A stretch of 64,000 nt of DNA from Clostridia bacterium (GTDB taxonomy: Bacteria; Bacillota; Clostridia; Oscillospirales; CAG-272), in NCBI GenBank assembly GCA_017444735.1, contig JAFSWB010000088.1, positions 3,521 through 67,520 of the forward strand. The letters run 5' to 3'. Under the pieces are notes generated by a model. It was not told the DNA's origin. It ran no database searches and saw nothing but the letters and a program-made list of their open reading frames with translations. Positions 3,639 through 15,434 of this stretch are shown piece after piece (the first letter of the stretch is position 1; each line of letters starts with the position of its first letter). A program made the position numbers and the translations under genes.

Positions 3639-4019
3639 TTATTTGAGTTCGACGGTGGCGCCGGCAGCTTCGAGCTGAGCCTTGAGGGCGTCGGCGTCCT
3701 CTTTGGTAGCGCCTTCCTTGATGGCCTTCGGAGCGCTCTCGACGAGCTCTTTGGCTTCCTTCAGGCCGAGACCGGTGATCTCGCGGACGACCTTGATAAC
3801 GTCGAGCTTCTTAGCGCCGAAGTTGGCGAGAATGACGTCAAACTCGGTCTTTTCCTCAGCGGCGGCGGCTGCGGGAGCAGCGCCTGCGCCGGCGGCGACG
3901 GCGACGGGAGCGGCGGAAACGCCGAACTCTTCCTCGACAGCCTTAACGAGCTCGGAGAGCTCAAGAATGGTGAGACCCTTGATCTCATCAAGAATAGCGG
4001 TGATCTTTTCAGATGCCAT
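3639..4019 (-). CDS. rplL: 50S ribosomal protein L7/L12
   Basis: 126 aa. Typical N-terminal dimerisation helix, Ala-rich hinge, and C-terminal domain [24 protein letters not shown]. Confidence 0.97.
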
Positions 4020-4063
4020 TTTAATTTTCCTCCGTTAATTATTTCAGTTGATTTGTTTTTTGA

Positions 4064-4687
4064 TTACTCTTCGGGTTTCTCTTCGGTGGGAGCTTCCTCG
4101 GCCGGAGCTTCCTCGGCCGGAGCTTCCTCGGCCGGAGCTTCCTCAGCCGGAGCTTCCTCGGCGGGAGCTTCCTCAGCCTTTTCGGCGGGAGTCATATCGC
4201 CCTTGTCAACGACTGCCTGAAGACCGACCGCAAGGCCGTAAAGAGGCGACATCAGGCTGCCCATGAGCTTAGCGATAAGAACTTCCTTCGGCGGGATGTC
4301 GGCGAGTTCTCCGACGACGGCGGCGTCGACGACGGCTCCGTCAAGAAAGCCCGCTCTGATCTCAAAGGTCTCGATCTTGTCCGCGTACTTCTTAAGTATC
4401 TTCGCGGGCGCGACGGGGTCCTCAAAGCTGACCGCGACGGCGTTCATACCCTCGAGATGGGGCTTCAGTCCGTCAAAGCCGACCTTTTCGCACGCGAGAT
4501 TGATAAGACTGTTCTTGATGACAGAATAATCAACGCCCGCCGCGCGGAGCTCGGCGCGGAGCTTCGTATCGTCCTCGACCGTGATTCCCTGATATTTCAC
4601 AAGCACTCCGGAAACCGCTTTGCCGAACTTGTCGGCAAGCTCGTTCACGACCGCCTGCTTCTGCTCCAGGATCTTTGCGCTTGGCAT
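4064..4687 (-). CDS. rplJ: 50S ribosomal protein L10 with a repeat-containing acidic C-terminal tail
   Basis: 207 aa with an L10-like body, located immediately upstream of rplL. The C-terminus carries six AEEAP units. Confidence 0.93.
   Translation of the reverse strand: MPSAKILEQKQAVVNELADKFGKAVSGVLVKYQGITVEDDTKLRAELRAAGVDYSVIKNSLINLACEKVGFDGLKPHLEGMNAVAVSFEDPVAPAKILKKYADKIETFEIRAGFLDGAVVDAAVVGELADIPPKEVLIAKLMGSLMSPLYGLAVGLQAVVDKGDMTPAEKAEEAPAEEAPAEEAPAEEAPAEEAPAEEAPTEEKPEE
4088..4177 (-). repeat. 6 x 15-bp in-frame tandem repeat (AEEAP) inside rplJ
   Basis: Plus-strand units sGGAGCTTCCTCrGC are repeated six times head to tail. On the minus strand they read gcc gag gaa gct ccg. Confidence 0.9.
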
Positions 4688-7940: not shown

Positions 7941-8969
7941 ATGGCTAAAAACATTCTGGGCATAGACATCGGCTACGACAGCCTGAAGCTTGCTCTCGTC
8001 AACGGAACGACGGTCAAAAAGACGTACAGCGTTCCGATGCCGAAGAAGCTCCTTCAGGAGGGGCGCGTCGTCTCAACCGAGACGATGGGCGAGCTCATCC
8101 GCGGATCAATGAGAAAAGGCGGCATCAGCGCGAACTACGCCGCGCTGTCGCTCTCCGGAGAGTCGGTTTTCATCAGGACTCTCACCGTTCCGCAGATGAC
8201 GCCCGATCAACTGAACTATAACATCGGATATGAGTTCCGGGACTACATAACGACGGAACTGAAAGACTGCGTTTTCGATTACGCGATGATCTCGACTCCG
8301 GAGCAGCTCAGATCGCAGACGGAGACGGTAGACGAATCGGGCAATCGCGTCGCTCCGACGATGGACATCCTCGCGGTCGCCGCGCCCGTCAAGCTGATCG
8401 AGGACTCGAAGGCGATGCTCCGCAAGGCGGGACTCCGGCTCGCGAAAGCCGCTCCGTCCGAATGCGCCTATATCGCGCTCATCAGAGAAGCCGAAAAGCG
8501 CGGCGCGGAGAAGGATCGGGAATACTGTATCCTCGATCTCGGATACAACGCGATCCGTATGCATATGTTCCGCGGCGAGCGCCACATGGTAACGCGTCAG
8601 CTTGAGGTCGGCCTTTCGAGCATCGACGACGTCATCGCCGACACTTACAACGTCGACGTTCATCTCGCACACACCTATCTTCTGTCAAACCATGACGGAT
8701 GTCAGGACAAGGACGTCTGCGTATCGGCGTTCGGCAACATTTCCGTCGAGCTGATGAGAGCGATCAACTTCTACCGCTTCAACAACCCGGAAAGCAGCCT
8801 TTCCGACATATGGCTCTGCGGCGGCGGCGTCGCGATCCCTTCTTTACGCAATTCGATCGCCGAGTCGCTTGATCTGAACCTTCACCCCGCGGAAGAGCTC
8901 GTTTCAGGCGGAGACCGGATAGCCGACTGCTTCGAGTTCGTTCAGGCTATCGGGATAGCGCAGTATTGA
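7941..8969 (+). CDS. pilM: type IV pilus assembly protein PilM (actin-like ATPase fold)
   Basis: 342 aa with N-terminal LGIDIGYDSLKLAL. Position between pilD and the pilN/O-like genes. Confidence 0.8.
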   Translation: MAKNILGIDIGYDSLKLALVNGTTVKKTYSVPMPKKLLQEGRVVSTETMGELIRGSMRKGGISANYAALSLSGESVFIRTLTVPQMTPDQLNYNIGYEFRDYITTELKDCVFDYAMISTPEQLRSQTETVDESGNRVAPTMDILAVAAPVKLIEDSKAMLRKAGLRLAKAAPSECAYIALIREAEKRGAEKDREYCILDLGYNAIRMHMFRGERHMVTRQLEVGLSSIDDVIADTYNVDVHLAHTYLLSNHDGCQDKDVCVSAFGNISVELMRAINFYRFNNPESSLSDIWLCGGGVAIPSLRNSIAESLDLNLHPAEELVSGGDRIADCFEFVQAIGIAQY

Positions 8970-8987
8970 GAGAGGGGGAAACAGATA

Positions 8988-9629
8988 GTGGCATTTAATG
9001 CAAAAGCGGCTTCGGGACGGGCCCCGTCAAAGATAACGCTTCCCACTAAAAGAACGGTCAACTTCGCCGAGGTAGGCAAAAAGAAAACGAAGCTCGGCAT
9101 CGCGATCCCCGGGATCATCCTGATCGTCGTCGCGGCGTTCCTCTTCAGCAAATTCGCCGTTATCGACAGACTCGTCAAGGTCTCGGAGGCGGAGCGCGCC
9201 GTCAGCGAAGTGCGCGCGAAGATCGTCGCCGGGAATCAGAAGATCGACAGCTTCGGCGAGCTGACCGATATTTACGCTCACTACACCTTTTCGGGAATGA
9301 CCGAGGAAGAACTCAACCGCACCGGACGTGTGAAAATAATCGATCTCGTCCGGAACGTCATCCTTCCCGAGGCGTACGTTGAGAGCTTCAGCATCTCCGG
9401 CAACGTAATGACCGTTTCCGTCACCGACGACACGCTCCGGTCGATCAACCTTATAGCGGAAAAGCTCGAAAAAGAACCGATCGTCAGCTTCTGCACCGTG
9501 ACGACCGCCGCGACGAACGACAGGGATCTGGATCTCAGAAGAGCCATAGAAGAAAAGGGGCTCGTCACCGCGAATCTCAACATCTATCTTGTCGGCGAAC
9601 TTGAAACCGAGGAGGAGGAGACGAACTGA
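8988..9629 (+). CDS. PilN-like bitopic pilus assembly protein
   Basis: GTG start. Basic N-terminus, one TM segment (IAIPGIILIVVAAFLF), then a coiled-coil. Synteny after pilM. Confidence 0.6.
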   Translation: MAFNAKAASGRAPSKITLPTKRTVNFAEVGKKKTKLGIAIPGIILIVVAAFLFSKFAVIDRLVKVSEAERAVSEVRAKIVAGNQKIDSFGELTDIYAHYTFSGMTEEELNRTGRVKIIDLVRNVILPEAYVESFSISGNVMTVSVTDDTLRSINLIAEKLEKEPIVSFCTVTTAATNDRDLDLRRAIEEKGLVTANLNIYLVGELETEEEETN

Positions 9630-10252
9630 TGAAAATCCTGTCGCGTGATTTTACGCTTTTTGAAAAAATACTCATAGCGATCCTTCTCCTCGTGATCGTC
9701 GGACTCGCATACTACCAGTTCGTCGACAAGCCGGTGCGTTCCGCCATAGAATCCGCGGAAGCGGAAAAGGAAGCGCTCAACATCGAGCTCTCCGGGATCA
9801 ACGCAAAGATCGCGGAGCTCGAAAAAATGCAGAACGACCTCGACAGGATCCTCGCCGATCCCACAATAAATCCGATGCCGAGTTATAACGCGATCGGCGA
9901 GATAAGAAACGTTCTCAACAACCTGCTCGGAGATCTCGGATACCGGATAACTTTTTCCAACGTCACCAAAGACAACGACCAGATCCGGCAGAACATCTCG
10001 ATGTCGTTCACCGCTCCCGATTACGACTCGGTCGATGCGCTCCTCGTCGGTCTTGAAACCAACGATATCCGCTGCAAGATCGCGGACGTCAAAGGGTCGA
10101 GGGTTTACGGATACAACTACTTCACCGGCGAAGTCATCGGAGCCGATTTCCCCGACGCGATGAACGTTTCCCTGTCCCTCACGTTTTACGAGACCATGCA
10201 CGGGGGAACTCCGGACGCCGGTCTTCCCGCCGAAACAAGCGCCGCGAACTGA
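9629..10252 (+). CDS. PilO-like bitopic pilus assembly protein
   Basis: The start overlaps the previous stop (TGATG). One TM segment followed by a coiled-coil (AEAEKEALNIELSGINAKIAELEKMQ). Synteny. Confidence 0.6.
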   Translation: MKILSRDFTLFEKILIAILLLVIVGLAYYQFVDKPVRSAIESAEAEKEALNIELSGINAKIAELEKMQNDLDRILADPTINPMPSYNAIGEIRNVLNNLLGDLGYRITFSNVTKDNDQIRQNISMSFTAPDYDSVDALLVGLETNDIRCKIADVKGSRVYGYNYFTGEVIGADFPDAMNVSLSLTFYETMHGGTPDAGLPAETSAAN

Positions 10253-10269
10253 ACCGAAAATTAAGAGAG

Positions 10270-10302
10270 GGGACAAGGGTCGAAACTGTTCTTGTCCCTT
10301 TC
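10270..10302 (+). terminator. putative terminator after the pil block
   Basis: GGGACAAG-13 nt-CTTGTCCC followed by TTTC. The T-tract is weak. Confidence 0.4.
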
Positions 10303-10320
10303 AAGAAGGAGAGATAAGCA

Positions 10321-10620
10321 ATGCTCAATATCACCAAAAACATTGAAAACGGAGAAGCGATCATTTCGCTTGAAGGACGTCTCGACACCGTGACCGCTCC
10401 GGAGCTCGAAGCGGTCGTCAAAGAGGTCGTCACGGAGGTTCACGGACTCACTCTCGATTTTTCGGGCCTCGAGTACGTCTCTTCCGCGGGGCTCAGAGTT
10501 TTGCTCTCCGCCCACAAAGCGATGAGTACGAAGAGCGGAATGAAAATCCGTCACGTGAACGATTCGATCTCCGAGATTTTTGAAGTCACCGGTTTTTCGG
10601 ATTTTCTGAACGTCGAGTAA
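10321..10620 (+). CDS. STAS-domain anti-sigma-factor antagonist
   Basis: 99 aa. LDFSGLEYVSSAGLRVLL phosphoserine context, with SpoIIAA/RsbV-like length and pattern. Confidence 0.85.
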   Translation: MLNITKNIENGEAIISLEGRLDTVTAPELEAVVKEVVTEVHGLTLDFSGLEYVSSAGLRVLLSAHKAMSTKSGMKIRHVNDSISEIFEVTGFSDFLNVE

Positions 10621-10659
10621 AAAACGGCGCCCGGCGAAGGGCGGTCCGGGGGAGTTACC

Positions 10660-11865
10660 ATGGCTGATTGCAATAAAGAAAAACTAATCCTGAAATTATC
10701 GGGAAGGATCGACTCAGGCAACGCCGCCGCGGTCGAGAAAGACCTTCTCGACCGTCTTTCCGGCGCGGGCGACGTCCGCGTCGTCATCGACGCGTCGGAC
10801 CTCGAATATATTTCGAGCGCCGGACTGCGCGTTATTCTCCGTATCCGGAAAGCGTACCCCGATCTCAAGATCACCGGCGTTTCGTCCGAGATCTACGAAA
10901 TTCTCGAAATGACCGGATTCACCGAGATGATCTCCGTTGAAAAGGCTTACAGAACGGTATCCGTCGAGGGATGCGAGGTGATCGGAGAGGGCTTCAACGG
11001 AAAAGTCTACCGCATAGATAAGGATAACGTTGTAAAGACGTATAAAAACGCCGACGCTCTCGCCGAGATACAACACGAGCGCGAGGTCGCGCGTCTCGCG
11101 CTTATCCTCGGCGTTCCCACGGCGATCTCGTACGACGTCGTCAAAGTGGGCGACAGTTACGGCTCCGTATTCGAGCTTCTCAACGCACGCTCGTTTTCAA
11201 AGATCCTTGCAAACGAGCCCGAGCTTTACGGATGGTGCGTCAGCGAATACGTTAAAATGCTGAAGAAGATCCACTCCATCGAGGTCCCGGAGGGGAAGCT
11301 CCCTCACGCAAAGGACGCCGTCGTCGCCGCGATCGGGAGGATCGGTCATCTGCTGCCGGACGGACTCGGCGACAAGCTCCTCGGAATGGCGGAGGCGATC
11401 CCCGACAGCGATCACATGATCCACGGCGATTTCCACACGAAGAATATCGTGCTCGCCGGAGACGAAGTGCTCGTTATCGATATGGACACCCTGTCCGTCG
11501 GTCATCCGATTTTCGATCTCGTCAGTATTTACAACGCTTACGTCGGGTATTCCGAGTACAACCCCGATATCGTCCTCAATTTCCAGGGCTTTGACGCCGA
11601 CCTGTCCCGCCGGTTCTGGCACGACGCCCTCGGCGCGTATCTCGGAACGGCCGACGAGGAGAGAATAAAAGAAACGGACGAGAAGGTCCGCTGTCTCTCT
11701 TACGCGAGACTGATCGATTGGAGCCTCCGCCACCACGGCGACGGAACGGAAGAAGAAAAAGCGACGAGAGCCCTCTGGACGGAGAGGCTGATCGGGCTTC
11801 TCGGCAGGGTCGATTCGCTTGATTTCGATCCTGCGCCCGCGGCGAGAGCGATCCCGACGAACTGA
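10660..11865 (+). CDS. STAS domain fused to an aminoglycoside-phosphotransferase/protein-kinase-like domain
   Basis: The N-terminal ~95 aa are STAS (IDASDLEYISSAGLRVILRI). The remainder has a kinase-like fold with GEGFNGKVYRIDKDNVVK, HGDFHTKNIVL and VLVIDMD motifs. Confidence 0.75.
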   Translation: MADCNKEKLILKLSGRIDSGNAAAVEKDLLDRLSGAGDVRVVIDASDLEYISSAGLRVILRIRKAYPDLKITGVSSEIYEILEMTGFTEMISVEKAYRTVSVEGCEVIGEGFNGKVYRIDKDNVVKTYKNADALAEIQHEREVARLALILGVPTAISYDVVKVGDSYGSVFELLNARSFSKILANEPELYGWCVSEYVKMLKKIHSIEVPEGKLPHAKDAVVAAIGRIGHLLPDGLGDKLLGMAEAIPDSDHMIHGDFHTKNIVLAGDEVLVIDMDTLSVGHPIFDLVSIYNAYVGYSEYNPDIVLNFQGFDADLSRRFWHDALGAYLGTADEERIKETDEKVRCLSYARLIDWSLRHHGDGTEEEKATRALWTERLIGLLGRVDSLDFDPAPAARAIPTN

Positions 11866-12046
11866 CGATCACCTTCGCAGACAGAGAAGTCACTTACGAC
11901 CCGAAAACCCCGACGTCACCCTCCCCGCGGAAGAACGCCGTATCGGAGGACTCGGGGTCTTTATGACGAAAGCCGTTATGGACGACATCCGGTACGAATA
12001 CAAGGACGGCCGGAATATCCCGACTCTTATCAAAGAAATCAAATGA
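11823..12046 (+). pseudogene. remnant of an RsbW/SpoIIAB-type GHKL anti-sigma kinase (N-terminal half missing, 1-nt frameshift)
   Basis: Frame 3 reads ...ARGESDPDELTITFADREVTYDP. Frame 2 continues with ENPDVTLPAEERRIGGLGVFMTKAVMDDIRYEYKDGRNIPTLIKEIK*. Together these make the C-terminal ~70 aa of the small ATP-binding-protein family. The frames switch near 11900..11903, and no upstream frame encodes the N-terminal half. Confidence 0.6.
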
Positions 12047-12062: not shown

Positions 12063-13283
12063 ATGAAGCTGCCTGAATTCGACACAAGAGAAAAAAAGCC
12101 GAAGCTGTACGCGCTGATCGCCCTGACGGCGGTCGCTCTGGCTGTCGTCTCCGTCCTGATCGCCGTCGATCGGGACGGATGCGCGGGAGCCGTCGCCGTC
12201 TTTGCGGCGGCGTACTGCTTTTTTTCCGTTCTCATTCTGCTTTATTCGTTCAGAGAACAGATACGGTATAATCCGTATTCGTATAACACCATATTCTATT
12301 TCGGCTTTTCCGTTTTCGCGTTTTTCGTGATGATAACGTTCATCGTTCTCTCCGTGCGGATATTCCGCTCGCCGGGCGTCTATCCGACGGACGCGATCGT
12401 CGGGATCCTTCTCTCCTCGGCGAAGAACTACACGGTCCTCACGCTCCCGTTCCTTCTCGTTTTTTCCGTCGCCCTGTGCGTCTCGAACGTATCGCTTATC
12501 AGGCACGAGGGCAAACGGCCCGTAAATCTGCTCGGGATCGTCCTCTCCGTCCTCATTATCGGAGGGGAGGTCTTCATCCTCACGTTCGATTTCTACGTCT
12601 CCGGCAGTCAGACGGAGGTTATGATCCACGATATCGTCGCAAACGTCTCCTCCGCGATCTTCCTGTACTTTGAATGTATGCTCATCGGAACGATCGTCGC
12701 CGACGCGATCGCCGCGAAGCACGAGCCGACGTACGGCCGCGGCTTCATCATCATCCTCGGATGCGGGCTGAAAAAAGACGGCGCGCCCTCTCCCCTTCTC
12801 CGCGGAAGGATCGAGCGCGCGCTTGAATTCAGCAAAAAGCAGGAAGAGGCGACCGGTCAGACCGCGATCTTCGTCGCGTCCGGCGGCCGCGGCCCGAACG
12901 AGCCCGTATCGGAAGCCGCCGCCATAAAGCGATATCTCATCGAACGCGGCGTGCCCGAGGAAAGGATCGTCGAGGAGGATCTCTCGACCGATACTTATGA
13001 GAATATGAAGTTCTCGAAAGAGAAGATCGACGCTATCGATCCGTCGGCGTCCGTCGCGTTCTCCACGACCAATTACCACGTCTTCCGCGGGGGCGTCTTC
13101 GCCCGCCGCGTCAAGATGCGCGCGGTCGGAATGGGAGCGAAAACGAAGTGGTATTTCTGGCCGAACGCCGCGGTGCGCGAGTTCGTCGGTCTTCTGACGA
13201 AGCACGTCGTCAAGCAAGCGGTGATCCTCGGCGCAATGATCGCCTTTTACGTCGCGATCACCGTTATCGCGTATTCCGTGTGA
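12063..13283 (+). CDS. multi-TM protein with a C-terminal DUF218/YdcF-like domain
   Basis: 406 aa. About 6 TM helices followed by IIILGCGL...VASGGRGPNEPVSEAAAIKRYL...STDTYENM, typical of DUF218. Confidence 0.75.
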   Translation: MKLPEFDTREKKPKLYALIALTAVALAVVSVLIAVDRDGCAGAVAVFAAAYCFFSVLILLYSFREQIRYNPYSYNTIFYFGFSVFAFFVMITFIVLSVRIFRSPGVYPTDAIVGILLSSAKNYTVLTLPFLLVFSVALCVSNVSLIRHEGKRPVNLLGIVLSVLIIGGEVFILTFDFYVSGSQTEVMIHDIVANVSSAIFLYFECMLIGTIVADAIAAKHEPTYGRGFIIILGCGLKKDGAPSPLLRGRIERALEFSKKQEEATGQTAIFVASGGRGPNEPVSEAAAIKRYLIERGVPEERIVEEDLSTDTYENMKFSKEKIDAIDPSASVAFSTTNYHVFRGGVFARRVKMRAVGMGAKTKWYFWPNAAVREFVGLLTKHVVKQAVILGAMIAFYVAITVIAYSV

Positions 13284-14295: not shown

Positions 14296-14333
14296 ATTAT
14301 GTTGTGAAAAAAGAAAAACCGGAGGCGGAAAAA

Positions 14334-15434
14334 ATGACAAAAGTCGATATTTTTTCGGGATTTTTAGGCGCCGGAAAGACGACGCTTATCAAAAAGCTCA
14401 TAAAAGAGGCGTACCGGGGCGAGATGCTCGTCGTAATCGAAAACGAATTCGGCAAGATCGGGATCGACGGCGGATTTCTTAAGGAAGCGGGGATCGAGAT
14501 AACCGAGATGAACTCGGGCTGTATCTGCTGTTCCCTCGTCGGCGATTTCGGAAAGGCGCTGAAAAAAGTCAAGGACGAGTACGACCCCGACCGCATACTC
14601 ATCGAGCCGTCGGGCGTCGGAAAGCTCTCCGACGTCATCCGCGCCGTTCAGAACGCCCACGTTGACGGAATGGAGCTGAACGCGTTCACTACGGTCATCG
14701 ACGCCACGAAGTGCAAAATGTATATGAAGAACTTCGCGGAATTCTACCGCAATCAGATCGAATTCGCGTCGTCCGTCGTTTTCTCGCGGACGGACGGGAT
14801 CAGGAAGGAAAAGCTCGCCGAGGCGGAGGAGATCGTCCGCTCGCTGAACGGCACGGCGTCGCTCATTACCACGCCGTGGGATCAGCTCGACGGCAGGATC
14901 ATTCTCGAAACGATGGAAAAGAGGAACACGCTCGAGGCGGAGCTCCTTCACCTGCTCGAAGAGCAGAAGGAGAAGGAAGCGGGCGAGCATCATCACCACC
15001 ACCATCATCACGACGACGACGATGACGACGAGCACGAGCATCATCATCACCATCATCACGAGGACGGCGAGGAGTGCGACGATCCCGAGTGCGAGTGCCA
15101 TCATCACCACGACGACGAGCATGAGCATGAGCATCATCATCACGATCACGACGCCGACGAGGTCTTCACGAGCTGGGGGATCGAGACGTCGGACAAATTC
15201 ACGGAAAGCGCGATCGAGGACAGGCTCGACGAGCTCATGACGGGAAGATACGGCATGATACTGCGCGCGAAGGGGATCGTTCCCGCGGAGACGGGCGAGT
15301 GGATCCACTTCGACTACGTTCCCGGAGAGAAGGAGGTCCGCACCGGTTCCGCCGACGTCATCGGCAAGCTGTGCGTGATCGGGACCGGACTCGACCGGAG
15401 CGGACTCGCCGGGCTCTTCCGCGCCGATAACTGA
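14334..15434 (+). CDS. CobW/G3E-family metallochaperone GTPase with a long His/Asp/Cys-rich insert
   Basis: P-loop GFLGAGKTT, a CICCS metal motif, and a His-rich stretch (nt ~14985..15162). I chose the ATG at 14334, which has a GGAGG 8 nt upstream. The track ORF starts at a GTG at 14304. Confidence 0.85.
   Translation: MTKVDIFSGFLGAGKTTLIKKLIKEAYRGEMLVVIENEFGKIGIDGGFLKEAGIEITEMNSGCICCSLVGDFGKALKKVKDEYDPDRILIEPSGVGKLSDVIRAVQNAHVDGMELNAFTTVIDATKCKMYMKNFAEFYRNQIEFASSVVFSRTDGIRKEKLAEAEEIVRSLNGTASLITTPWDQLDGRIILETMEKRNTLEAELLHLLEEQKEKEAGEHHHHHHHHDDDDDDEHEHHHHHHHEDGEECDDPECECHHHHDDEHEHEHHHHDHDADEVFTSWGIETSDKFTESAIEDRLDELMTGRYGMILRAKGIVPAETGEWIHFDYVPGEKEVRTGSADVIGKLCVIGTGLDRSGLAGLFRADN

Follow-up and report, generated by a model that had tools for sequence, protein, structure and literature searches.

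Organization of the locus

The locus lies on the plus strand of a 64-kb stretch of clostridial DNA (the window) and comprises a gene for a free STAS protein, a gene for a STAS–APH fusion and the remnant of a GHKL kinase domain, followed after 17 bp by the start of a DUF218 gene. Its features, numbered along the window, are as follows.

10321..10620, + strand: free single-domain STAS protein, 99 aa (Pfam STAS 2.7e-13; NCBIfam anti-sigma factor antagonist 7.6e-18)
10660..10959, + strand: N-terminal STAS domain of the 401-aa protein, aa 1-100 (Pfam STAS 5.7e-15, match aa 5-100)
10975..11829, + strand: APH/protein-kinase-like phosphotransferase domain of the same protein, aa 106-390 (Pfam APH, AF2, Foldseek)
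11830..11865, + strand: out-of-frame tail PAPAARAIPTN and stop codon, lesion a (the linker motif SDPDEL continues in another frame)
11844..11903, + strand: GHKL remnant fragment 1, ESDPDEL joined to TITFADREVTYDP (tblastn against homologues P0002 and P0006)
11903..12046, + strand: GHKL remnant fragment 2, ENPDVTLPAEERRIGGLGVFMTKAVMDDIRYEYKDGRNIPTLIKEIK and stop codon, carrying the G2 box and C-terminus in a third frame (Pfam HATPase_c_2; P0006 aa 486-532)
12063..13283, + strand: DUF218 membrane protein, 406 aa (Pfam DUF218 1.2e-24; 68% identity to the DUF218 protein of related locus L011)

Both intact genes had been described in a first-pass annotation of this DNA, as a 99-aa STAS protein with an SSAGLRVLL motif and a 401-aa fusion (ORF 10660-11865) of a second STAS domain to an APH-like fold, and the Pfam matches above bear these descriptions out. 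The phospho-acceptor context of the free protein reads VSSAGLRVLL; the protein contains LEYVSSAGLRVLL and shares 61% identity with the free STAS protein encoded upstream of a SpoIIE phosphatase in a related locus (L009). With one free and one fused STAS domain, the window retains the phosphorylatable-Ser antagonist feature of partner switches. A terminator scan found no plus-strand intrinsic terminator in the gap between the STAS and STAS–APH genes or in that between the remnant and DUF218.

The flanking genes encode PilM-type pilus proteins, DUF218 and a 5'-nucleotidase, and the Pfam annotation of these neighbors upholds the earlier statement that no sigma factor gene adjoins the locus. Searches of the whole 64-kb window by tblastn and HMM detected no PP2C/SpoIIE, PHP, HD_4 or other GHKL gene, and no MatE–GHKL fusion, M15 peptidase or 'c5' protein. 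The PHP gene that is usual between the module and its downstream neighbor is missing from the 17-bp gap.

The STAS and APH-like domains

Within the N-terminal STAS domain of the 401-aa protein, Ser53 occupies the position of SpoIIAA Ser58. This residue is invariant across 143 family members and present at 172 of 174 loci, and it is kept also where GHKL is not encoded locally. When the 401-aa protein was used to search PDB sequences, SpoIIAA-type STAS proteins were recovered, and the APH part found no match.

The APH-like domain matches Pfam APH (PF01636) at 1.4e-15 over aa 106-294, scoring 58.1 bits against a cut-off of 23.2 bits. The three motifs cited in the first-pass annotation (GEGFNGKVYR..K, HGDFHTKNIVL and VIDMD) are all present, and alignment, which could have exposed missing catalytic residues, found every one of them kept: the G109/G111 loop, K126, E140, H255-G-D257-x4-N262 and I273-D274-M-D. 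Each of G109, G111, K126, E140, H255, D257, N262 and D274 is invariant or at least 90% conserved in the family. A bilobal kinase fold is predicted with high confidence (AF2 pLDDT 95.2), and the model of STAS plus APH has a pTM of 0.88, indicating a fixed interface and rigid packing of the two predicted domains.

In terms of structural relatives, Foldseek aligned the domain with the capreomycin phosphotransferase Cph001, APH(2''), APH(3') and MTR kinase at E values of 3e-11 to 1e-8, with an identity of only 13-21%. The nearest solved folds are not those of protein kinases but of small-molecule kinases, which have a helical substrate lobe, and the APH-like enzyme is probably a small-molecule kinase, to judge from sequence and model. 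These enzymes, together with MtnK and TIGR02172, share the fold, the Gly-rich loop, the Lys, the Glu, HxDxxxxN and IDxD; the antibiotic phosphotransferases and MTR kinase differ in having no STAS domain. Membership in TIGR02172 (NCBIfam) was considered and rejected, as the score of 101.4 bits against a cut-off of 228.2 marks the domain as related but not a member. Literature searches found no paper on TIGR02172 and nothing on the STAS–APH architecture.

A decayed third domain

The first-pass annotation had placed the C-terminal part of an RsbW/SpoIIAB-type kinase, frameshifted and lacking its N-terminal half, directly after the stop codon of the fusion gene. A frameshifted C-terminal piece of an RsbW-type kinase is indeed there, but it is not a following gene: the remnant begins 22 nt upstream of the stop codon of the 401-aa ORF. 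Moreover, 112 of the 120 closest homologues (57-76% identity) are single proteins of about 530 aa with the order STAS–APH–HATPase_c_2. The remnant is therefore, on sequence grounds, the decayed third domain of the STAS–APH gene itself and not a separate canonical RsbW/SpoIIAB gene.

By Pfam, the ORF at 11819-12046 matches HATPase_c_2 over no more than the last third of the profile (positions 85-127 of 127), with an E value of 3e-5 and 24.5 bits, under the cut-off of 27.4. Despite this sub-threshold score the remnant is real, as indicated by its match to the C-terminus of homologue P0006 (74% identity over 47 aa, tblastn E 1.6e-19) and to a family-specific HMM (E 6.5e-22). Because the remnant is still 74% identical to its homologues, the loss of the GHKL domain in the window lineage is, by this alignment, recent.

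Three lesions separate the remnant from an intact domain. Lesion a is a frameshift in the APH–GHKL linker that yields the out-of-frame tail, for which AF2 gives a pLDDT of 41-68. Lesion b is an in-frame deletion of about 69 aa (207 bp; P0006 aa 404-472) with its junction at 11864/11865, and it removes the ATP-binding N-box helix. Lesion c is a 10-nt deficit or scar at 11903-11906. Sister contigs carry an 89-bp inverted-repeat, MITE-like insert at exactly this site; the insert has no meaningful match in Rfam, and its inverted repeat is absent from the window. In 100 intact three-domain homologues the GHKL residues E442 and N446 (N-box), D478, G480 and G503-G506 are invariant. The earlier conclusion that the STAS kinase has been lost consequently stands for the window lineage, where the N-box is gone and the pieces lie in three frames; an intact HATPase_c_2 serine kinase is present in relatives.

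Independent assemblies and allele comparison

An identical 401-aa protein is encoded on seven contigs. Five sequences assembled independently of one another (the window, L001, L002, L004 and L006) show the lesions; the sixth contig compared, L003, stops inside the MITE-like insert. Lesions a and b are also found in a second allele, which has the insert at site c. Comparison of the window with L002 revealed 1 synonymous change in the 1506 bp of the two intact genes, as against 5 substitutions and an indel (2.8%) in the 181-bp remnant and 0.53% divergence over the upstream 6.8 kb. The free STAS and STAS–APH genes are intact and unusually conserved between alleles that share GHKL lesions.

Architectures and gene neighborhoods in the family

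The STAS–APH fusion is conserved in relatives, in three-domain form among the closest homologues and as two-domain STAS–APH in 141 of the 150 best-scoring cluster representatives; most of the more distant relatives have two domains. As this two-domain protein is the majority form in the wider family, the enzyme is viable without a fused GHKL domain. The three-domain query P0006 matches 876 clusters (50% identity) at E<=1e-30; metagenomes yielded more than 580 hits and species-representative genomes more than 590, both being lower bounds. Nearly all members found to date are from Clostridia of the rumen and gut.

Other fusions within the family include GHKL–STAS–APH and STAS–APH–PHP, and fusions of the APH-like gene with PHP, HD or nucleotidyltransferase domains occur occasionally. 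The GHKL kinase itself is found fused to the STAS–APH protein at either end, to SpoIIE phosphatase or to a MatE transporter. SpoIIE–GHKL fusions accompany many two-domain members, and L011 has a clean two-domain STAS–APH gene alongside a separate STAS–SpoIIE–MatE/GHKL cluster. Fusion variants of this kind (GHKL at either end, SpoIIE–GHKL, MatE–GHKL, STAS–APH–PHP) link the components to one another without recourse to experiment. Where GHKL is fused to STAS–APH, AF2 predicts a flexible tether (pTM 0.64, linker pLDDT <50).

Gene context was surveyed at 76 loci whose flanks reach 2.5 kb or more in both directions, using our own ORF calling, in which domain-bearing ORFs were preferred, and family-derived HMMs. 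The GHKL kinase is fused at 47 of these loci, adjacent at 16 and absent at 13. Constant coexistence of STAS–APH with an intact GHKL kinase had been named in the first-pass annotation as grounds for rejecting a kinase replacement, the two then being unrelated neighbors; in essence such coexistence is what the loci show (63 of 76), except that GHKL is here a partner and not an unrelated neighbor. At about 11 of the 76 loci, STAS–APH with the conserved Ser53 has no GHKL within four genes, and GHKL is accordingly not always encoded locally.

A free STAS gene is found at 53 of the 76 loci, PP2C at 38 and DUF218, a recurrent downstream neighbor of the module, at 12; PHP or HD_4 occurs at 37, in each case directly beside the STAS–APH gene. 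The presence of free STAS follows that of GHKL (counts 51/12/2/11, Fisher p 1.3e-5, with kinship among loci ignored). Only at the window and L013 does a free STAS gene occur without an intact GHKL domain, and a GHKL wreck is visible in both; at least one lineage besides that of the window has lost the domain independently and recently. The best NCBIfam resemblance of the neighboring PHP phosphatase is to 3',5'-nucleoside bisphosphate phosphatase and RNase RNM, and the HD_4 neighbor is a RelA/SpoT-type hydrolase gene. No sigma factor was found among the recurrent neighbor clusters that were annotated. Recurrent clusters checked as sigma factors proved to be QueT, BirA-like, GH31, U32 peptidase, aminotransferase and ABC transporter genes of one syntenic genome group.

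Comparison with known partner switches

Sigma factor control is the textbook role of partner switches. With the SpoIIAA/SpoIIAB/SpoIIE and RsbV/RsbW/RsbU modules of Bacillus subtilis, the present family shares a STAS domain with a phospho-Ser, an HATPase_c_2 kinase and, in relatives of the window gene, a co-encoded SpoIIE/PP2C phosphatase. It departs from them in that no sigma factor is found in the window or recurrently in relatives, and in that the kinase forms fusions with STAS–APH, with the phosphatase or with a MatE transporter; the window itself has only a wrecked kinase and lacks the phosphatase. Non-sigma outputs are known from SypE/SypA of Vibrio fischeri, HsbR/HsbA of Pseudomonas and SiaABCD. 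In switches of this type the kinase and phosphatase for the small switch protein are sometimes one polypeptide, like the SpoIIE–GHKL fusions seen here, and SiaA was a weak match in our profile search. Their switch protein binds a separate output protein, whereas the family described here carries the switch domain within the polypeptide of the presumed output enzyme.

The architecture of the window gene most resembles a case from Anabaena PCC 7120, where All4160, a STAS-fused glycosyltransferase, is controlled through phosphorylation by an RsbW-like kinase and a SpoIIE-like phosphatase in the All4160/HenR/Alr3423 system (PMC13555669). The N-terminal STAS domain of All4160 carries a phosphorylatable Ser, and the output is enzyme activity, not transcription; such direct control by a fused STAS domain has been shown only very recently, for this one cyanobacterial glycosyltransferase (PMC13555669). 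The likeness, known here from sequences, extends to the STAS–enzyme architecture in the window and to the kinase and phosphatase partners in relatives, but not in the window. Unlike All4160, the enzyme is an APH/kinase-fold phosphotransferase and not a sugar transferase, its kinase is in many cases part of a fusion protein, the module usually includes a free STAS competitor and the lineage is Clostridia rather than cyanobacteria.

Proposed mechanism and alternatives

Overall, the best explanation of the locus is that STAS–APH is a regulated output enzyme whose regulatory kinase domain has been lost in the window lineage, a reading to which we assign a probability of about 0.6. The window gene is probably a recently degraded member of a large, uncharacterized family of partner-switching-like modules of rumen and gut Clostridia. 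The ancestral protein of its clade would have been a three-domain one, with a STAS domain, an APH domain and a GHKL serine kinase of RsbW type, and genes for a free STAS protein, a SpoIIE/PP2C phosphatase and either a PHP or an HD_4 phosphohydrolase would usually have accompanied it. Where the system is complete, the conserved Ser of the STAS domains would be phosphorylated by the GHKL kinase and dephosphorylated by the PP2C phosphatase, and the free STAS protein would compete for the kinase. The phosphorylation state of this Ser may then toggle the APH-like enzyme on or off. That enzyme would stand as output in place of a sigma factor, for which All4160 offers a precedent, and a regulated output enzyme is most likely what the APH domain is. 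Without its regulatory kinase, the STAS–APH protein of the window lineage would be either locked in the unphosphorylated state or reliant on a kinase encoded elsewhere.

A different reading had been given in the first-pass annotation, namely that, once the GHKL kinase was lost, phosphorylation of the free STAS protein or of the attached STAS domain fell to the APH-like domain, a non-orthologous kinase replacement. The intact catalytic set, the predicted rigid packing of STAS on APH, the invariance of Ser53 even at loci without local GHKL and the conservation of both genes after the loss all speak for it. The fusion, however, is older than the loss, and the APH fold usually coexists with the STAS kinase (63/76 loci, mostly within one polypeptide); it therefore did not replace that kinase. 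Free STAS, moreover, is found only where GHKL is, or recently was, present. The structural neighbors with their helical substrate lobe are not protein kinases, and the dedicated PHP or HD_4 phosphohydrolase adjoining the gene in half of the loci suggests a small-molecule substrate. We consider such a replacement unlikely; the observations are better explained by a STAS-regulated enzyme that has lost its regulatory kinase domain. That the frameshifts and deletion are sequencing or assembly artefacts hiding an intact three-domain gene is far less probable still. Indel errors do occur in metagenome assemblies, but the same lesions recur in separate assemblies that stem from different projects and samples, the second allele shares lesions a and b and differs at site c, and a 207-bp in-frame deletion is atypical of sequencing error.

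The remaining alternatives concern what is left of the module. The whole of it could be dying, with the free STAS and STAS–APH genes as non-functional leftovers in which lesions have yet to accumulate. A wrecked GHKL domain, the recency of its loss and the absence from the 64 kb of the PP2C, PHP and HD_4 partners of relatives would suit such an end. Both ORFs are nevertheless full length with all conserved residues kept, a single synonymous change separates the lesion-sharing alleles where remnant and flanks have diverged by 2.8% and 0.53%, and two-domain STAS–APH predominates among the best-scoring cluster representatives; we find this reading doubtful. A possibility with a somewhat better claim, although one we would not favor, is that the partner switch is complete, its GHKL kinase and PP2C phosphatase acting in trans from elsewhere in the genome. 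The arrangement in L011, the SpoIIE–GHKL fusions that accompany many two-domain members and the conservation of Ser53 at loci without local GHKL argue for it, and the failure to find such a kinase or phosphatase within the window argues against; a trans-acting pair could be encoded beyond the 64 kb. Its candidates may be the MatE–GHKL or SpoIIE–GHKL fusions of relatives, and the APH enzyme may be the output in this case as well.

Implications for the family

A more speculative extension, which we rate as rather improbable on present sequence comparisons, is that STAS–APH proteins serve as output in a partner switch of a new kind, one that governs a small-molecule kinase and not transcription, with a perhaps nucleotide-like substrate whose phosphorylation is reversed by the hydrolase. 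If so, the APH domain would phosphorylate and the adjoining PHP or HD_4 hydrolase dephosphorylate, giving a switchable cycle of a signalling metabolite, and the window strain would be a natural mutant without the kinase that controls the switch and without the hydrolase. The window locus does not argue for a new STAS kinase; as a natural kinase-less allele it offers a useful comparison, and the family would extend STAS control of a fused enzyme to an enzyme of the kinase fold.

The degraded GHKL domain belongs to the STAS–APH gene

ORF and Pfam analysis of the window locus recovers the three elements that the first-pass annotation had reported: a free STAS protein, a STAS protein fused to an APH (phosphotransferase-like) domain, and a remnant of an RsbW-type GHKL kinase domain (HATPase_c_2).

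Elements of the window locus (plus strand)
10321–10620: free STAS protein, 99 aa (…LEYVSSAGLRVLL…); Pfam STAS, 2.7e-13
10660–11865: STAS–APH protein, 401 aa; Pfam STAS, 5.7e-15 (aa 5–100), and APH/PF01636, 1.4e-15 (aa 106–294)
11819–12046: GHKL remnant ORF, ending …IGGLGVFMTKAVMDDIRYEYKDGRNIPTLIKEIK; Pfam HATPase_c_2 positions 85–127 of 127 only, E 3e-5, slightly under the curated cut-off

The remnant had been taken for a separate, wrecked kinase gene, a reading that gives way to one in which it forms the third domain of the STAS–APH gene. Specifically, the 401-aa protein, used as a search query, matched an identical protein (P0001) and then homologues at 57–76% identity, nearly all of 516–550 aa, whose precomputed Pfam domains are STAS, APH and HATPase_c_2. 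A domain scan of 120 homologues gave STAS–APH–GHKL in 112 and STAS–APH in eight. When the window DNA was aligned in three frames against two intact homologues, P0006 (534 aa) and P0002 (532 aa), the gene proved colinear with both through the APH domain, after which it carries three lesions.

Lesions in the third domain of the window gene
Lesion a, linker frameshift: out-of-frame tail PAPAARAIPTN(stop) at 11830–11865; linker motif SDPDEL in another frame from 11844
Lesion b, deletion: about 69 aa (P0006 aa 404–472) lost; junction of DPDEL and TITFADREVTYDP at 11864/11865
Lesion c, second frame change: 10-nt deficit at 11903–11906, between YDP and (K)ENPDVTL

The ancestral gene was thus STAS–APH–GHKL. 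The segment removed by lesion b includes the N-box helix. In 100 intact homologues no variation is seen at Glu442 or Asn446 of this helix, nor at the G1 residues D478 and G480 or the G2 residues G503, G504 and G506. Judged from these alignments, the remaining GHKL fragment should be unable to bind ATP. Loss of the STAS kinase in the window lineage, as originally proposed, is borne out by the deleted N-box and the frameshifted remnant.

The upstream neighbors are PilM and two small pilus-cluster ORFs, the downstream neighbors a DUF218 membrane protein and a 5′-nucleotidase; no sigma factor gene adjoins the locus, in agreement with the first reading. The 64-kb window contains no PP2C, PHP, HD_4, MatE–GHKL or second GHKL gene, and the locus is a stripped-down STAS / STAS–APH / DUF218 arrangement. 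A terminator scan found no intrinsic plus-strand terminator in either gap flanking the 401-aa gene.

The type IV pilus assembly cluster directly upstream (7941–10252; prepilin peptidase, PilM and two small Pfam-less ORFs) adjoins STAS genes in the window lineage only and was not seen in other loci. Between it and the free STAS gene, at 10266–10303, lies an 8-bp G+C-rich inverted repeat (GGGACAAG…CTTGTCCC) followed by TTTC, not flagged by the terminator scan, which may be a terminator or attenuator parting the pilus and STAS units. Elsewhere in the window, a 376-aa ORF (14304–15434) combines an N-terminal GTPase P-loop motif, GFLGAGKTT, with a very long His/Asp/Glu-rich run (HHHHHHHHDDDDDDEHEHHHHHHH…); from the motif, recognized by eye, we take it to resemble CobW/metallochaperone-type proteins.

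The lesions are polymorphic among sister strains

The identical 401-aa protein occurs on seven contigs from different samples and projects. Alignment of the lesion region from the window and four sister contigs (L001, L002, L004 and L006) showed the remnant in L001 and L004 to be exactly as in the window; a further contig, L005, matches the window at 100% identity from end to end. Lesions a and b are common to L002 and L006, but site c in these two contigs is occupied by an 89-bp MITE-like element that is bounded by perfectly matching terminal inverted repeats of 12 bp (GGGTAACAGGAG…CTCCTGTTACCC) and accompanied by a TA target duplication.

MITE-like 89-bp element
L002 6791–6879, also in L006 and L003; equivalent window site 11903–11906

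The L003 contig ends inside this insert, and its lesions are readable only in part. Removing the element yields an in-frame …YDPLKKEDPDVTL… that agrees with the family consensus. At exactly this site the window has the 10-nt deficit and two substitutions, which an imprecise excision may have left as a scar. Rfam gave no match to the element, and neither the window nor the 175 fetched loci contain a further copy. The lesions are real and polymorphic among sister strains. Between the window and L002, the free STAS and STAS–APH genes (1506 bp) differ by one synonymous substitution, the remnant (181 bp) by five substitutions and an indel, and the upstream 6.8 kb by 36 substitutions (0.53%). This pattern, albeit of small numbers, fits a pseudogenized third domain beside two genes under continued purifying selection after the loss.

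GHKL loss is recurrent among related loci

For genomic context we retrieved 80 loci each from species-representative genomes and from metagenomes, nearly all from rumen or gut Clostridia MAGs, and annotated them with HMMs built from recurrent neighbors, whose identities were confirmed by Pfam. Counts refer to the 76 loci, duplicates excluded, that are flanked by at least 2.5 kb in both directions. GHKL is fused to STAS–APH in 47 of these, lies within four genes in 16 (as a stand-alone protein of 135–170 aa, SpoIIE–GHKL of ~620 aa or MatE–GHKL of ~590 aa) and is absent from 13. Free STAS genes occur in 53/76 loci and SpoIIE/PP2C phosphatases in 38/76. A PHP or HD_4 phosphohydrolase occurs in 37/76, in all 37 as the immediate neighbor of the STAS–APH gene, and the two types occupy interchangeable positions (e.g., PHP at L009 9621–10484, HD_4 at L022 7276–7857). 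No sigma factor was found among the annotated recurrent neighbor clusters. The STAS–APH family thus sits within modules of STAS, GHKL and PP2C components that have no recurrent sigma factor.

Free STAS tracks GHKL (51/12/2/11 for both, GHKL only, free STAS only and neither; Fisher p 1.3e-5, uncorrected for phylogeny). Free STAS without an intact GHKL occurs only in the window and in L013, a 70%-identical relative whose STAS–APH and free STAS genes are intact and whose otherwise complete GHKL domain (3941–4360) has a linker frameshift and an internal stop (…NCAYSP(stop)HGSAW…). The L013 wreck is independent of that in the window, and clean two-domain genes also occur within the three-domain clade (e.g., L011, where PHP starts 9 bp past the stop codon); GHKL loss is therefore recurrent.

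Two fusions recur around the modules: a MATE-family transporter with RsbW-like HATPase_c_2 (~590 aa; L011 3104–4864) and a membrane SpoIIE phosphatase with HATPase_c_2 (~620 aa; L096 3035–4906). In addition, a conserved ~200-aa protein with no Pfam or NCBIfam match, absent from the window, adjoins the free STAS gene in 11/76 loci (L007 7201–7815; L017 5903–6508).

The wider family and its predicted structure

P0006 was searched exhaustively against cluster representatives with HMMER, giving 876 clusters at E≤1e-30. Among the best 150, 141 are two-domain STAS–APH proteins of ~390 aa with 34–50% identity to P0006, and a C-terminal GHKL is confined to one clade.

Other family architectures
P0124: GHKL–STAS–APH
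P0122: STAS–APH–PHP
P0174: STAS–APH–PolyA_pol head
P0199: HD-CE–STAS–APH
P0246: Na/H exchanger–STAS–APH

Ser53, N262 and D274 do not vary among 143 diverse members, in which G109, G111, K126, E140, H255 and D257 are at least 90% conserved; the HxDxxxxN motif is found in 174/174 loci and the Ser motif in 172/174. Ser53 would correspond to SpoIIAA Ser58 in our alignment of motifs. The catalytic competence that the first-pass annotation had ascribed to the kinase-like fold is thereby upheld at the level of conserved residues. A lack of catalytic residues had been named as grounds for refuting the first reading, and on this count it is not refuted. NCBI labels members "phosphotransferase", "anti-sigma factor antagonist" or "ATP-binding protein", and no paper on a STAS–APH or STAS–APH–GHKL protein was found in the literature searched.

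AlphaFold2 modeled the 401-aa protein from a 143-sequence alignment with mean pLDDT 95.2 and pTM 0.88, the out-of-frame tail being the only low-confidence part; so high a pTM implies that STAS and APH meet at a defined interface in the model. Foldseek matches in the PDB (capreomycin phosphotransferase Cph001, APH(2″), APH(3′) and 5-methylthioribose kinase; E 3e-11 to 1e-8, 13–21% identity) are all small-molecule kinases. For intact P0006, the values were pLDDT 88 and pTM 0.64, with linker residues 395–398 below pLDDT 50, indicating that the GHKL domain is flexibly tethered. Taken together, residues and models portray an APH domain with an intact catalytic set and a resemblance to small-molecule kinases.

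Role of the APH domain

That the APH domain took over as STAS kinase once GHKL was lost, as first proposed, draws some support from the conservation of Ser53 even where no GHKL gene is nearby and from the tight STAS/APH packing in the predicted model. We nonetheless consider such a replacement unlikely, as the STAS–APH fusion is older than the GHKL loss and normally coexists with GHKL, free STAS co-varies with GHKL, and the fold neighbors are small-molecule kinases. Constant coexistence with an intact GHKL kinase had been named as an observation that would refute the replacement, the fusion then being an unrelated neighbor; coexistence is indeed the norm, but GHKL is an integral partner.

More likely is a partner-switching-like module that has the STAS-fused enzyme as its output. 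In such a module, the GHKL kinase and PP2C phosphatase would together determine whether the STAS Ser is phosphorylated, competition for the kinase between free and fused STAS would form the partner-switch step, and the state of the fused STAS would gate the APH-like enzyme. The closest experimental precedent for this proposed gating of a fused enzyme by STAS is Anabaena All4160 (PMC13555669). With respect to substrate, the best NCBIfam resemblances of PHP are to 3′,5′-nucleoside bisphosphate phosphatase and RNase RNM, and HD_4 has a RelA/SpoT hydrolase fold. A cycle, controlled by the partner switch, in which APH phosphorylates a nucleotide-like metabolite and the adjacent PHP or HD_4 dephosphorylates it is a guilt-by-association suggestion, and an unlikely one.

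The window locus would then be a degraded member of this partner-switching-like family. Its lineage has neither kinase domain, phosphatase nor hydrolase at the locus, and its enzyme presumably stays unphosphorylated, unless partners that act in trans are encoded elsewhere in the genome.
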